Below, in pieces: positions 33,885 through 37,973 of a stretch of 64,000 nucleotides of DNA; within the stretch, counting starts at the first letter, position 1; each line of letters starts with the position of its first letter. Origin of the DNA: Escherichia phage vB_EcoM_G2285; sequence record MK327933.1, one strand, 5' to 3'. The notes below the pieces were generated by a model that saw only the letters and a list, made by a program, of their open reading frames with translations, was not told where the DNA came from and did not search any database. The translations under genes and the position numbers were made by a program.

Positions 33885-33910
33885 ATAATACCATACTATT
33901 CGTAAAGCAT
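33885..33910 (-). promoter_or_regulatory. Middle promoter for gene 31 (MotA box ATGCTTTAC plus TATTAT)
   Basis: MotA-box-like element about 11 nt upstream of the -10. Confidence 0.4.
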
Positions 33911-33911
33911 A

Positions 33912-34220
33912 TTACATAAGAAGCAAACGTTCTACCGGAGTACCATCAACCGAAATTACTTTATCAAGGCGGAAAGAACGCCACTGACCTAACTTGGTAT
34001 CGAATGCTCGAACTGATTCACGAGGTTCAGAACGAACTTCTGTTGCCGGATTGTTATTTTCATATTTGACTTCAAGTTCATCGCGGGAGGCAAACATCGT
34101 ACGAACATCACCGTTAGCCTTTTCAAATACAACACAATGAACGCCTACAGACAGAATAGTTTTAATACGTTCACGAAGAACCATAGTTTCTTGTTCAGTT
34201 AAAATCATATTATTCACCAC
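33912..34220 (-). CDS. Hypothetical protein (31.1-like)
   Basis: 102 aa ORF. Confidence 0.5.
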   Translation of the reverse strand: MVNNMILTEQETMVLRERIKTILSVGVHCVVFEKANGDVRTMFASRDELEVKYENNNPATEVRSEPRESVRAFDTKLGQWRSFRLDKVISVDGTPVERLLLM

Positions 34221-34791
34221 AAAAGTTTCGAATTTGTTCCCAATTCAGAGAACGAAGATTATTACGAGAGTACTGAATTACTTCAATACCAGCTTGTTTA
34301 AGAATGTCTGCCCAATTTTCAGGAGACCGGTCATATAATTCTGCATATACAACCTTTTTAATGCCTGACTGTGTGATAGCTTTAGTGCAATCAGGACATG
34401 GAGAAAGTGTCGTATACAACGTAGCACCTTCAATAGAATTACCTTTACGAGCTGCAAACAAAATTGCATTCAATTCAGCATGGATTTCGTTATTAGCAGA
34501 CCATACACTATGAGCAGCCCGATGTTCTTTAGCCAAAACAAAATTATCTGCCCGTCCAAATGCTGTAGTGCCTTCTTTATGTCCAGCAACGATGTCCGGG
34601 CTTGGTTTATTCTTCAACCAGCCGTTTTCGGATGCATGTTCGCAACAGTTTGTACCACCTGAAGGAGAGCCATTATAACCTGTAGAAATAATGCGTCCAT
34701 CTTTTTCAATGACGGCACCAACTTTCCATGAACAACATTTTGATTCTTGAGAAATCAAATAAGCAATTTGAAGATATGTGCTAGCTTTCAT
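34210..34791 (-). CDS. cd: dCMP deaminase (Cd)
   Basis: 193 aa; zinc-binding HAE and PCxxC motifs; T4 Cd-like. Confidence 0.9.
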   Translation of the reverse strand: MKASTYLQIAYLISQESKCCSWKVGAVIEKDGRIISTGYNGSPSGGTNCCEHASENGWLKNKPSPDIVAGHKEGTTAFGRADNFVLAKEHRAAHSVWSANNEIHAELNAILFAARKGNSIEGATLYTTLSPCPDCTKAITQSGIKKVVYAELYDRSPENWADILKQAGIEVIQYSRNNLRSLNWEQIRNFCGE

Positions 34792-35783
34792 TATTGAACC
34801 TTATTAATATAAGTTAACAGCTCTTTAGTTTGTTCCCAACTGATGCACGCATCGGTAACGGAAACGCCATAGGACATATTATCAGAAATTTTTTGATTTC
34901 CTTCATGTAGGAATGATTCTATCATAATTCCTTTGACCAAATCATTAGCTGCTAAATTTTTACCAATACCAATTTGATTGCTATAATGCCCAGCAGCGTT
35001 TGCATGGCTACAGTCAACCATTACATAATGATTCAGACCTACTGCACTTGCTTTGTTAGAAGCTTCTTGAATATCAGAAGAATGATAGTTCGGGCCGTTG
35101 GTCCCGCCACGCAATACGATATGCGTATTCTGATTACCTTCAGCTTCAACAATGCCTACAGTACCATCGACGTCCATACCCATATACCGATGAGGCCGGG
35201 CGGCACTATACATCGCGTCTGTAGCTACTTTAATAGAACCATTGGTCGCGTTCTTGAAGCCTACGCACATCGGTAGACCTGAAGCAATTTCACGATGTGT
35301 CTGACTTTCAGTCGTACGGGCGCCAATAGCAACCCATGAGAAAATACCAGAAAGATACTTAATCGTGAATGGGTCTAATACTTCAGTTGCTAACGGAAGT
35401 CCCATACGTAGAAGTTTACGACACAATGTTCGTGCAACTATAAGACCGTGGTTCATATCAAAACTTCCGTCAAGATATGGATCATTTACAAGACCTTTCC
35501 AACCTACGGTAGTTCGAGGCTTTTCAAAATAAACGCGCATCACTAACAGAACATTAGGAAGACGAGTTTGAAGTTCAGCCAGACGTTTGCCGTATTCAAC
35601 AGCAGCAATAGGGTCATGAATTGAACAAGGACCTACAACAATAAGTTTGCGTGGGTCTTCACCGTTCATAATCGAATTAACTTGTTCGCGATGAGAAGCC
35701 ACTTGTGATGCGTAAGCTTCCGACAAAGGAATAATCTCAGCCAGTTCTTTTGGAGAAATAAGTTTTCTGACGACAGGTAACAT
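34791..35783 (-). CDS. 3-deoxy-D-arabino-heptulosonate-7-phosphate (DAHP) synthase, class I (AroG/AroF-like)
   Basis: 330 aa; GPCSIHD, MRVYFEKPRTTVGWKGL, IGARTTESQ, GFKN, LRGG, CSHAN, EGNQ, TDACISWE motifs; stop overlaps the cd start (TAATG). Confidence 0.85.
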   Translation of the reverse strand: MLPVVRKLISPKELAEIIPLSEAYASQVASHREQVNSIMNGEDPRKLIVVGPCSIHDPIAAVEYGKRLAELQTRLPNVLLVMRVYFEKPRTTVGWKGLVNDPYLDGSFDMNHGLIVARTLCRKLLRMGLPLATEVLDPFTIKYLSGIFSWVAIGARTTESQTHREIASGLPMCVGFKNATNGSIKVATDAMYSAARPHRYMGMDVDGTVGIVEAEGNQNTHIVLRGGTNGPNYHSSDIQEASNKASAVGLNHYVMVDCSHANAAGHYSNQIGIGKNLAANDLVKGIMIESFLHEGNQKISDNMSYGVSVTDACISWEQTKELLTYINKVQ

Positions 35784-35791
35784 AACAATCC

Positions 35792-35980
35792 TTAGTAGAT
35801 ATAAACAGATTCTGATTCAACAATACCTTTAACCGGATTAGACAGGCTAAGTTGGTAGTACTCAGATTTATGACCATTCTCGATAGTAATGAGATAGCTC
35901 TCATTATAGTGTTCCGTATACTCGAGTTGCTTCAACAAGACCATCACTGCATAATTTAAGATTAGTAATTTGGTCACCAT
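35792..35980 (-). CDS. Hypothetical protein; overlaps previous ORF by 77 nt in the +1 frame
   Basis: 62 aa ORF; may be a separate gene or the frameshifted continuation of 35904..36140. Confidence 0.3.
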   Translation of the reverse strand: MVTKLLILNYAVMVLLKQLEYTEHYNESYLITIENGHKSEYYQLSLSNPVKGIVESESVYIY

Positions 35981-36140
35981 CTTTAGGATTAACGATTATG
36001 AGAAAAGAACGTGGAGATTCTTGAATAACTCGTAATGTTGCATCTTGGAAACGTTCAGACACTTTATTGATGAGTGCTTGAGCAAATTCTTTTACTTTAA
36101 TCTGAAATTCGTGTACTGTAATTGGGTTTTCACTTAGCAT
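35904..36140 (-). CDS. Hypothetical protein
   Basis: 78 aa ORF with early promoter upstream. Confidence 0.4.
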   Translation of the reverse strand: MLSENPITVHEFQIKVKEFAQALINKVSERFQDATLRVIQESPRSFLIIVNPKDGDQITNLKLCSDGLVEATRVYGTL

Positions 36141-36200
36141 TTCTATTTCCTCATTTGTTGGTAGAGTTATAGTATCACAACTCCACCATGTTGTAAACCA

Positions 36201-36886: not shown

Positions 36887-37973
<1,087 letters not shown>

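Follow-up and report, generated by a model that had tools for sequence, protein, structure and literature searches.

A predicted DAHP synthase with a remodelled inhibitor site encoded next to cd in a Mosigvirus-type T4-like phage

The locus and its accessory cassette

The window, a stretch of 64,000 nucleotides of Escherichia phage vB_EcoM_G2285 (MK327933.1), carries on its minus strand a gene for a DAHP synthase within a leftward block ordered pseT, cd.5 to cd.2, DAHP synthase, cd and 31 (Table 1). The nucleotide-metabolism genes frd, td and nrdAB share this block, and cd is the immediate neighbour. An earlier note on this DNA had placed the gene at a cd-pseT junction; cd does adjoin it, but the upstream neighbour is a cd.2 homologue, and pseT lies 1.1 kb further on, behind four small ORFs. 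All motifs listed in that note (GPCSIHD, MRVYFEKPRTTVGWKGL, IGARTTESQ, GFKN, LRGG, CSHAN, EGNQ and TDACISWE) were found in the translation. No in-frame start was found between the ATG and the preceding stop, and the short N-terminus of the product is therefore real. The GC3 of the gene (0.30, against 0.51 in E. coli aroF) resembled that of neighbouring phage genes, in agreement with the phage-like codon composition noted before.

Table 1. Features at the DAHP synthase locus, in window positions, with the evidence for each.
Feature	Position	Strand	Evidence or remark
DAHP synthase CDS, 330 aa	34791..35783	-	ATG start, TAA stop; Pfam, NCBIfam and PHROG matches
cd, dCMP deaminase	34210..34791	-	Pfam PF00383, E 1.7e-26; start overlaps DAHP synthase stop
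Native cd.2 homologue (DUF7320)	35904..36140	-	Pfam E 7.1e-35; aligned with T4 and RB69 cd.2; directly upstream of cassette
Accessory cassette, 1,113 bp (cd.2 fragment and DAHP synthase)	34794..35906	-	Missing from RB69
Small ORF, 62 aa maximal; 50 aa from 35944 as annotated in JK45	35792..35980	-	
Left copy of imperfect direct repeat, TAATGAGAGCTA	35895..35906	-	cd.2 stop/junction; junction sequences
Right copy of repeat, TAATGAAAGCTA	34782..34793	-	DAHP synthase stop overlapping cd start
Shine-Dalgarno-like AAGGA	35789..35793	-	5 bases before DAHP synthase ATG; read from sequence
Promoter-like TTTACA-17-TACTAT (TG-extended), between cd.3 and cd.2	36169..36197	-	Same position as T4 early promoter Pe133295
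Shortened N-terminal segment, 10 residues preceding conserved Pro (AroG Pro19)	35754..35783	-	Alignment; 16-58 residues in bacterial homologues
Cys53 codon (AroG Cys61, first of four metal ligands)	35625..35627	-	Alignment and codon read
Ile141-Lys142 codons (AroG Pro150-Gln151, inhibitor pocket)	35358..35363	-	Divergence scan
Pro171 codon (AroG Ser180)	35271..35273	-	Divergence scan
Further clade-specific residues, phage numbering: Gly146, Ile147, Tyr200, Ala214		-	Divergence scan

The stop of the DAHP synthase gene overlaps the ATG of cd (TAATG, read as caaTAATGaaa). The overlap had been taken as translational coupling; the overlap is real, and coupling may accompany it. The cd gene has an AAGG of its own upstream, and cd.2 and cd of RB69 show the same overlap. 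Sigma-70-type sites were not more numerous in the window than in shuffled sequence, so that for the promoter-like site between cd.3 and cd.2 only position is informative; this site is likely the source of a transcript over the DAHP synthase gene. No minus-strand terminator-like site was found between it and cd. MotA-box-type sites were strongly enriched on the minus strand (12 against 1.7 expected). The DAHP synthase would thus probably be made soon after infection, alongside the nucleotide-metabolism enzymes.

The flanks of the cassette aligned with RB69 at about 95% identity on both sides, and the RB69 junction consists of the left flank joined to the right repeat copy. The small ORF matched phrog_15876 (E 1.5e-28) and, weakly, DUF7320; its C-terminal 35 residues correspond to the 3' half of a cd.2 (DUF7320) of foreign type, and it was closer to Kanagawavirus cd.2 (25/60 identities) than to the cd.2 of its own phage (13/55). 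It is read from these matches as a putative recombination footprint that arrived with the cassette. Phage T4 has no DAHP synthase gene and carries cd.1 upstream of cd instead, which bears out the expectation that the canonical T4 gene set lacks this shikimate-pathway enzyme. Descent of the DAHP synthase gene from a diverged T4 cd.1 was considered and rejected, the two having no similarity. A cd.1 homologue adjoins the DAHP synthase gene in Proteus phage phiP4-3 (E 6e-7); no convincing cd.1 match was found within the window (one match of 13 residues, E 0.45).

Family assignment, distribution and selection

The DAHP synthase ORF exceeded the curated cutoffs of NCBIfam TIGR00034 (aroFGH equivalog; 428.8 bits, cutoff 173.2), NCBIfam NF009395 (457.1, cutoff 343) and Pfam PF00793 (DAHP_synth_1; E 2.2e-75; 253.5, cutoff 25.5), and matched the structure of E. 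coli AroF (6AGM) with an E of 4.8e-105. Positions 8-337 of the 341 of the phrog_5045 profile matched residues 1-330 (E 3.2e-181). Isozyme-specific cutoffs were missed, both for the AroG model NF006723 (365.6 bits against 568) and for the AroH model NF009396 (385.6 against 463). Family similarity was thus significant and far beyond chance, and the class I-alpha identity proposed for the ORF was upheld by the curated cutoffs and by conservation of the metal, phosphoenolpyruvate (PEP) and erythrose-4-phosphate (E4P) residues. The metal ligands Cys53, His260, Glu289 and Asp311 aligned with AroG Cys61, His268, Glu302 and Asp326, as had been stated from the motifs, and the residues contacting PEP and E4P were identical (AroG Arg92, Lys97, Pro98-Arg99-Thr100, Gly163-Ala164-Arg165, Lys186 and Arg234). 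All 14 metal and substrate residues were therefore intact in the phage enzyme, and the same 14 were identical in 24 of 24 full-length sequences of the phage clade. The fold of the enzyme is beyond question because of its 51% identity to solved structures. The gene product is probably a working class I-alpha DAHP synthase (EC 2.5.1.54) that would convert PEP and E4P to DAHP, as judged from these residues.

The Pfam family PF00793 is broadly defined as 'DAHP synthetase I family' and presumably also covers KDO8P synthases (KdsA). A KDO8P-synthase-like specificity would use a pentose phosphate, perhaps for an unusual sugar such as that of the arabinosyl-hydroxymethylcytosine DNA of Mosigvirus. The type Mosigvirus RB69 is described in PMC6024577 as arabinosylating its hydroxymethylcytosine DNA; RB69 has the modification yet lacks the DAHP synthase gene, and a link between the two was rejected. 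The gene also occurs in several genera, the best curated models were all of the aroFGH type, no KdsA model appeared among the NCBIfam matches, and the KPRT motif that binds E4P and the metal-binding Cys are intact. A KDO8P-like specificity is largely refuted by these observations and is very improbable.

The DAHP synthase was present at at least 95% identity in 139 phage records, under that name in most among the matches listed, and the protein of NicPhage (OY726582) was 100% identical. The family phrog_5045, annotated as 'phospho-2-dehydro-3-deoxyheptonate aldolase', belongs to Mosigvirus and other T4-like phages and includes for example the genes of NicPhage (OY726582), JK45 (NC_054940), PEi26, Entb_45, P545 and phiP4-3; the present gene showed no substantive difference from these members, the allosteric signature described below being clade-wide. 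The slot between cd.2 and cd was the same in Kanagawavirus, Marfavirus, Bragavirus and a metagenomic T4-like contig. An uninterrupted cd.2-cd junction was found in 11 phage records, against the 139 with the full-length gene, and the gene was not found in the records of RB69, JK36, JK42, moha, ECO111 5-P and mar005P1. As RB69 and these relatives do without the gene, it is dispensable, and any benefit from it must be conditional. Matches in 'Acinetobacter phage MD-2021a' were rejected as phage copies, since they look bacterial and are located among cobS and cobT genes.

The phage copies were monophyletic in 200 of 200 neighbour-joining (NJ) bootstraps, with identities down to 53% among members and of at most 55% to any bacterial homologue. 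Two bacterial homologues (P0109 and P0110) grouped beside the phage clade in the NJ tree, and both share S180P (AroG numbering). As the gene neighbourhood of P0110 is that of an ordinary bacterial chromosome, no donor lineage can be named. Values of dN/dS between phage copies were 0.07-0.18, indicating purifying selection. An inert passenger or decaying pseudo-enzyme, gained by recombination and useless to the phage, would agree with the normal growth of some close relatives without the gene and with the footprint carried by the cassette. It is contradicted by the low dN/dS and by the retention of all catalytic residues down to 53% identity, as well as by a base composition fully adapted to the phage, a position conserved across genera, and the excess of records with the full-length gene over those with the cd.2-cd junction without it; such a passenger is scarcely credible.

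The inhibitor pocket and the N-terminus

The 329 aligned columns were scanned, without bias towards any site, for columns conserved both in the phage clade and in bacteria but differing between the two, the bacterial set being limited to the 98 closest homologues of the phage protein and not representing the whole family. Only seven of the 329 columns were fixed differently (AroG positions 150, 151, 155, 156, 180, 209 and 223). Five of them are changes at the inhibitor site (P150I, Q151K, D155G, S180P and F209Y in AroG numbering) and the other two (L156I and T223A) flank inhibitor-site residues, so that all seven clade-defining substitutions lie in or beside the allosteric pocket. Overlap of five of the seven with a 15-residue allosteric-site set, compiled for the present analysis from the AroG literature, had a hypergeometric P of 1.9e-6. 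The AroG residues Pro150, Gln151, Asp155, Ser180 and Phe209 were 91-98% conserved in the 98 bacterial homologues, and the seven clade-specific residues were 96-100% conserved in the phage clade, against 74% for the average column. The alignment with AroG that the earlier note had suggested for the feedback-site residues thus showed a clade-wide replacement of the pocket's Pro, Gln, Asp, Ser and Phe by Ile, Lys, Gly, Pro and Tyr. No mention of this phage-clade signature was found in the literature searched.

As had been claimed, the N-terminus was shorter than in the host enzymes; the difference was 8-9 residues, the conserved Pro being preceded by 10 residues where AroG, AroF and AroH have 17-19. 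All members of the phage clade had 8-12 residues before this Pro, and 97 of the 98 bacterial homologues had 16-53; the one exception (P0119) had 11. The AroF substitution N8K and a 7-residue N-terminal deletion, work attributed to Jossek et al. in 2001, reportedly give a Tyr-insensitive enzyme. In AroG, P150L and S180F are feedback-resistant, Gln151 and Ser180 contact the main chain of the inhibitor, and Asp155 stabilises the site (PMC9529685). In yeast, the ARO4 allele Q166K confers feedback resistance (PMC5879953, PMC7513737); judged by the numbering offset, it replaces Gln by Lys at the equivalent of AroG 151, just as in the phage clade. The phage DAHP synthase is most likely insensitive to feedback by aromatic amino acids, because its N-terminus is 8-9 residues shorter and the residues that hold the inhibitor are substituted.

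The pocket residues were near-invariant in a clade with identities down to 53%, and the hairpin region was retained. Such a pattern would be expected equally if the pocket served a different function and if regulation had simply been lost; a carboxylate could still be bound by a Lys at AroG 151.

An active and still regulated enzyme, its pocket retuned to another effector such as chorismate, prephenate or a metabolite of the nucleotide pool, would make DAHP synthesis follow the state of the infection and not the levels of aromatic amino acids. The conservation of the seven residues well above the average column suggests constraint and not decay, the pocket-forming hairpin segment was kept free of gaps, and the change from Gln to Lys retains a polar, ligand-capable side chain. 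That conservation could equally reflect the position of the pocket at the dimer interface, and the phage enzyme lacks the N-terminal stretch with which, in AroG and AroF, the adjacent subunit closes the pocket. Three of the changes are at positions where published substitutions abolish inhibitor binding (AroG P150L and S180F; ARO4 Q166K). Retuning to another effector is on this evidence unlikely. The phage DAHP synthases as a group, with somewhat better than even chances, would form a naturally deregulated or re-regulated branch of AroF/G/H, in which selection, after capture by an ancestral T4-like phage, may have rebuilt the allosteric pocket only and left the catalytic core alone, the N-terminal lid having been lost.

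Proposed role and comparison with known systems

The best explanation of the locus, with a probability of about 0.6, is an early-expressed and probably feedback-insensitive DAHP synthase, encoded by an accessory (auxiliary metabolic) gene of a Mosigvirus-type T4-like phage, which would push carbon into the host shikimate pathway to some benefit of the phage. The auxiliary metabolic gene reading of the earlier note was supported. Purifying selection and presence/absence polymorphism of the gene are shown by the sequences. DAHP synthesis commits carbon to the shikimate pathway and controls its flux, and the host isozymes are shut off by their end products, AroF by Tyr, AroG by Phe and AroH by Trp. 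The phage enzyme would be made early from the leftward early/middle transcription block and would condense PEP with E4P to DAHP, the later steps being run by pre-existing host enzymes. A feedback-blind enzyme could then sustain the flow of carbon to chorismate, from which aromatic amino acids, folate and quinone precursors derive. This flow might persist where aromatics are plentiful in the surroundings and once the host's genes are no longer expressed. The literature searched contained annotation-level mentions of phage DAHP synthases only, and no enzyme assay, expression data or phenotype for any of them.

The same unregulated enzyme might instead serve as a substrate sink, using up E4P and thereby pulling transketolase and transaldolase toward pentose phosphates for nucleotides, and/or draining PEP. 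This logic resembles proposals made for cyanophage pentose-phosphate genes. Only the first step of the pathway is encoded, the JK45 annotation listing no further shikimate gene over most of the stretch that matches the window, and the gene is embedded in the nucleotide-metabolism block (frd, td, nrdAB) and overlaps cd. That step is however the recognised flux-controlling one, so that a single gene is equally predicted by product supply, and a PEP drain costs energy. A sink is considered quite improbable as the main role; this reading and the best explanation overlap and are compatible.

The gene itself is not new, and both databases and literature already name it correctly. The caveat on novelty attached to the first description applies: the gene is annotated in T4 relatives, has its own PHROG family (phrog_5045) and is named in the literature. 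In a 2020 paper DAHP synthase is listed among the auxiliary metabolic genes of Mosigvirus, its function being given as unknown, and the enzyme has also been noted in a Klebsiella Kanagawavirus. Added here are the single phage clade, the conserved slot, the purifying selection, the absence of the cassette from RB69 and a few relatives, the remodelled inhibitor site and the shorter N-terminus. The sequence evidence leads to a sharp hypothesis, that of a feedback-blind DAHP synthase, with RB69, JK36, JK42 and moha, which lack the cassette, as natural controls. If it is true, it would reveal how the one control valve on the shikimate pathway, the main point at which the host controls aromatic and chorismate metabolism, is overridden by a lytic phage, and the system would tell which chorismate-derived product limits the growth of T4-like phages. 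It would also be a clear example of how a metabolic gene in a phage can evolve out of feedback control by the host, and would offer a compact, natural feedback-resistant enzyme ready-made for metabolic engineering.

The phage enzyme was 51%, 47% and 44% identical, over essentially the full length, to E. coli AroF (6AGM), AroG (1KFL) and AroH, respectively. The description of the protein as AroG-like was right as to class, but AroF is slightly closer than AroG. The phage enzyme shares with AroF the Gly at AroG-211 and the Pro at AroG-147, and with all three isozymes the metal ligands, the PEP/E4P residues and the KPRT motif. Of the two regulatory additions of type I-alpha enzymes, the hairpin insert (beta6a/beta6b) appears to be present, AroG 209-223 aligning without gaps, and the N-terminal extension is cut short. 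Compared with the E. coli isozymes, the phage enzyme also has short deletions of 5 and of 3 residues, ends about 10-19 residues earlier at the C-terminus, and is encoded by a phage in phage codon composition. By identity and by the Gly at AroG-211 the phage enzyme is closest to AroF, yet it is the orthologue of no host isozyme.

Engineered feedback-resistant alleles (AroG P150L, S180F, D146N and F209S; yeast ARO4 Q166K and K229L) coincide with the phage changes at AroG 150, 151 (ARO4 166), 180 and 209. Ile at 150, Pro at 180 and Tyr at 209 are not the residues of the engineered alleles. The phage changes also arose naturally, occur together, are fixed in the clade and are accompanied by N-terminal truncation. 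Auxiliary genes of this type supply one rate-controlling enzyme of host type that is expressed in infection, host enzymes doing the remainder, and cyanophage psbA and talC and T4 frd, td and nrd are likewise genes for just one enzyme at the bottleneck of a host pathway. The phage DAHP synthase differs from them in that the pathway is the shikimate pathway, and an evolved loss of allosteric control, if confirmed, would be unusual among such genes.

Enzyme identity and records in other phages

The translated DAHP synthase ORF contained every motif quoted in the earlier note, and its TAA shares bases with the cd ATG (caaTAATGaaa), the stop-start overlap described there. An AAGGA lies 5 bases 5' of the DAHP synthase ATG. 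No earlier in-frame start was present between the preceding stop and this ATG; the N-terminus is therefore truly short rather than misannotated.

The database searches returned the expected family (Pfam DAHP_synth_1, E 2.2e-75; NCBIfam TIGR00034, the aroFGH equivalog, 428.8 bits vs a cutoff of 173.2), and the protein scored below the cut-offs of the AroG- and AroH-specific NCBIfam models. The closest solved structure was E. coli AroF (6AGM; E 4.8e-105). Identity to the E. coli enzymes was 47% for AroG, 51% for AroF and 44% for AroH; the label AroG-like thus holds for the family, with the protein slightly nearer AroF. The metal ligands (C61, H268, E302 and D326 in AroG numbering, used throughout) and ten residues binding PEP or erythrose 4-phosphate (E4P) (R92, K97, P98, R99, T100, G163, A164, R165, K186 and R234) were the same as in E. 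coli. The family matches, the identity to AroF, AroG and AroH and the conserved active-site residues together support the functional assignment as DAHP synthase.

The gene is not new, as the earlier note had allowed: it is an already annotated phage auxiliary metabolic gene. It matched phrog_5045, 'phospho-2-dehydro-3-deoxyheptonate aldolase' (E 3.2e-181). Megablast found it in 145 phage records, 139 of them full-length at ≥95% identity, chiefly from Mosigvirus-type phages of Escherichia and Shigella; among the matches listed, the majority carried the annotation DAHP synthase, aroF or AroG. With tblastn it was found in 212 records, including T4-like phages of Klebsiella, Enterobacter, Edwardsiella, Erwinia, Serratia and Proteus at 58-77% identity. 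Olsen et al. mention the gene, and further genome papers name it in passing; no functional study was found in the literature searched.

Two records are labelled unexpectedly. Shigella phage JK45 (L005, NC_054940.1) bears the RefSeq genus label Tequatrovirus; its DAHP synthase gene is ~99.5% identical to that of the window and it shares the pseT-cd gene layout, as in Mosigvirus phages, so that its filing is probably a taxonomy label issue. The record 'Acinetobacter phage MD-2021a' (L020, CAKLQH020000056.1), with aroF amid cobS, cobT and ribazole-phosphatase genes and a canonical allosteric site, looks like bacterial DNA filed under phage.

Genomic slot and accessory cassette

The gene lies in the T4 early/middle leftward block, in the order pseT, four small cd.x ORFs, DAHP synthase, cd, a 31.1/31.2-type small ORF, 31 and rIII, which agrees with the early nucleotide-metabolism location proposed from the sequence. 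T4 has no such gene, again as proposed; there, cd.1 is directly upstream of cd. No convincing cd.1 homologue was found in the window (best, one 13-residue hit, E 0.45). The same slot (cd.2-DAHPS-cd) is occupied in the Kanagawavirus phages Entb_45 and PEi26, and it is also present in a compact metagenomic T4-like contig. In Marfavirus P545 an HNH/NUMOD3 endonuclease-like ORF separates DAHP synthase from cd. In Bragavirus phiP4-3 the ORF downstream of DAHP synthase resembles cd.1 and is followed by one more small ORF, and the order is therefore DAHPS-cd.1-x-cd.

Coordinates of features in the window and in compared loci
Feature	Coordinates	Strand	Remarks
DAHP synthase ORF	34791..35783	-	330 aa, ATG start, TAA stop
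dCMP deaminase ORF (cd), next after DAHP synthase	34210..34791	-	PF00383, E 1.7e-26
Cassette, 1,113 bp	34794..35906		absent from RB69; imperfect direct repeat at ends
Repeat copy TAATGAGAGCTA	35906..35895		cassette boundary
Repeat copy TAATGAAAGCTA	34793..34782		cassette boundary
Small ORF in cassette	35792..35980	-	phrog_15876; overlaps cd.2 3' end in another frame
Promoter-like site between cd.3 and cd.2	36197..36169	-	position matches T4 early promoter Pe133295
MotA-box-type site inside pseT	37170..37194	-	nearest one upstream of cd.x/DAHP synthase block
MotA-box-type site upstream of gene 31	33885..33909	-	
Homing-endonuclease-like ORF, 189 aa, Klebsiella phage vB_Kpn_P545	L009 3480..4049		weak HNH and NUMOD3 matches
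Distant T4 cd.1 homologue, Proteus phage phiP4-3	L010 3457..3795		27% identity, E 6e-7; directly downstream of DAHP synthase
RB69 cd	L006 7743..8252		
Bacterial DAHP synthase P0110	L013 8001..9083		
DAHP synthase, Aeromonas phage HJ05	L018 3899..5062		non-T4-like phage
DAHP synthase, MT837466	L019 2914..4023		unverified faecal phage scaffold

No minus-strand terminator-like site was found between the promoter-like site and cd. The MotA-box-type middle-promoter pattern TGCTTYA-N11-13-TANNNT occurred 12 times in the window, always on the minus strand (1.7 expected from shuffling). The position in an early/middle block, the promoter-like site with no terminator after it and the MotA-box enrichment make early or middle expression of the gene likely.

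The gene is absent from RB69, the type Mosigvirus, in which the cd.2 stop and the cd start overlap; the RB69 flanks are ~95% identical to the window on either side of the missing segment. The imperfect direct repeat bounding the cassette is 12 nt long (TAATGA(A/G)AGCTA). It is present precisely once in RB69 and in ten other cassette-less records, a pattern compatible with acquisition or loss of the cassette through recombination at this microhomology. The cd.2-cd junction was uninterrupted in 11 records (RB69 x2, ECO111 5-P, mar005P1 x5, JK36, JK42 and moha), and given the 139 full-length records the gene is common yet dispensable. RB69 cd is annotated with 169 aa vs 193 aa in the window and T4, although its DNA aligns at ~95% across the region; the gene might have a frameshift or a premature stop, or the old record might contain a sequencing error.

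The C-terminal 35 residues of the small ORF in the cassette (ESYLITIENGHKSEYYQLSLSNPVKGIVESESVYIY) match the latter half of a cd.2 protein of the Kanagawavirus/Marfavirus type, to which the ORF is identical at 25/60 positions vs 13/55 for the cd.2 of the window phage itself. In Kanagawavirus and Marfavirus, cd.2 directly precedes DAHP synthase. The small ORF is retained as phrog_15876 and annotated in relatives, but has the look of a remnant from the recombination event by which DAHP synthase arrived. The sequence is most simply read as import of the cassette by recombination from another T4-like phage, with the left crossover within the foreign cd.2 and the right one at the cd start.

A different sugar-phosphate specificity, tied to arabinosyl-hmC, is essentially excluded as the role of the enzyme because RB69 has this modification without the gene.

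Conservation and the feedback site

The 24 full-length phage-clade proteins formed one group in 200/200 NJ bootstraps, with identities down to 53% among members and ≤55% to any bacterial homologue. Between phage copies dN/dS was 0.07-0.18. The AT-rich, phage-like codon usage previously noted was borne out (GC3 0.30 vs 0.16-0.33 in neighbouring phage genes and 0.51 in E. coli aroF). These comparisons point to an old, maintained phage gene, neither recently picked up nor decaying; the conservation data contradict the idea of an inert passenger.

No donor lineage could be named; the clade's neighbours in the NJ tree, the bacterial DAHP synthases P0109 and P0110, look like ordinary chromosomal genes, P0110 being in an ordinary bacterial chromosomal context. 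Their pocket residues are non-canonical (A-G at 150-151, Pro at 180, His at 209), and their placement may reflect shared ancestry or long-branch attraction.

Divergence was scanned, blind to structure, in an alignment of the 120 best database homologues with AroG, AroF and AroH, for columns conserved at ≥95% in the phage clade and ≥85% in the bacterial set with differing residues. Among 329 columns, 98 were conserved and identical and only 7 conserved and different: P150I, Q151K, D155G, L156I, S180P, F209Y and T223A (bacterial to phage residue). Five of the 7 fell within a 15-residue allosteric-site set compiled by the authors from AroG literature (P = 1.9e-6), and the remaining two lie directly next to allosteric-site residues in the sequence. 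AroG is made feedback-resistant by P150L, S180F and F209A/S; Q151 and S180 (AroF Q152 and S181) hold the inhibitor main chain, and D155 stabilises the inhibitor site (PMC9529685).

The shorter N-terminus pointed out in the earlier note is a trait of the whole clade: 8-12 residues precede the conserved Pro (AroG Pro19) in every member, compared to 16-53 in 97 of 98 bacterial sequences and 11 in the bacterial homologue P0119. In the AroG-Phe structure the inhibitor site of one subunit is completed by the N-terminal stretch of its partner. Jossek et al., in 2001, reportedly abolished Tyr inhibition of AroF by removing this stretch.

The remodelled feedback site predicts a naturally feedback-insensitive DAHP synthase. 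Alternatively, the pocket may have come to bind a different effector; its residues hardly vary across the clade, a pattern as compatible with constraint as with loss.

The distant DAHP synthases of HJ05 and MT837466 (35-38% identity) keep all catalytic residues and lack the canonical Pro-Gln/Ser inhibitor-site residues (A, H, P and H, R, E, respectively). This departure may be convergence or a trait of their own subfamily; the two are too divergent for a strong case of convergence.

Proposed role and comparison with known alleles

The phage enzyme, probably made early, would convert PEP and E4P to DAHP whatever the concentration of aromatic amino acids, and the host enzymes from AroB to AroC would pass the flux on to chorismate. 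The effect would be greatest in aromatic-rich surroundings, with the host isozymes under inhibition and repression, and after host gene expression has ceased. Candidates for the limiting product are quinones, aromatic amino acids needed in virion protein, and pABA/folate, on which thymidylate and hydroxymethyl-dCMP synthesis by the phage makes a heavy demand. Alternatively, the phage may benefit from the consumption of E4P itself, which would shift the non-oxidative branch of the pentose-phosphate pathway towards making nucleotide precursors; this is compatible with the place of the gene in the nucleotide block and with the absence of other shikimate genes, as judged from the annotation of JK45 over most of the part that matches the window.

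The observation in the earlier note is confirmed and its interpretation supported. As read from the alignment, the feedback-site remodelling shared by the whole clade is the new point on an otherwise known gene and the part worth pursuing, and natural phage pairs with and without the cassette exist. By numbering offset, the phage Q151K corresponds in position to Q166K of yeast ARO4, a published feedback-resistant allele with the identical Gln-to-Lys substitution (PMC5879953, PMC7513737).
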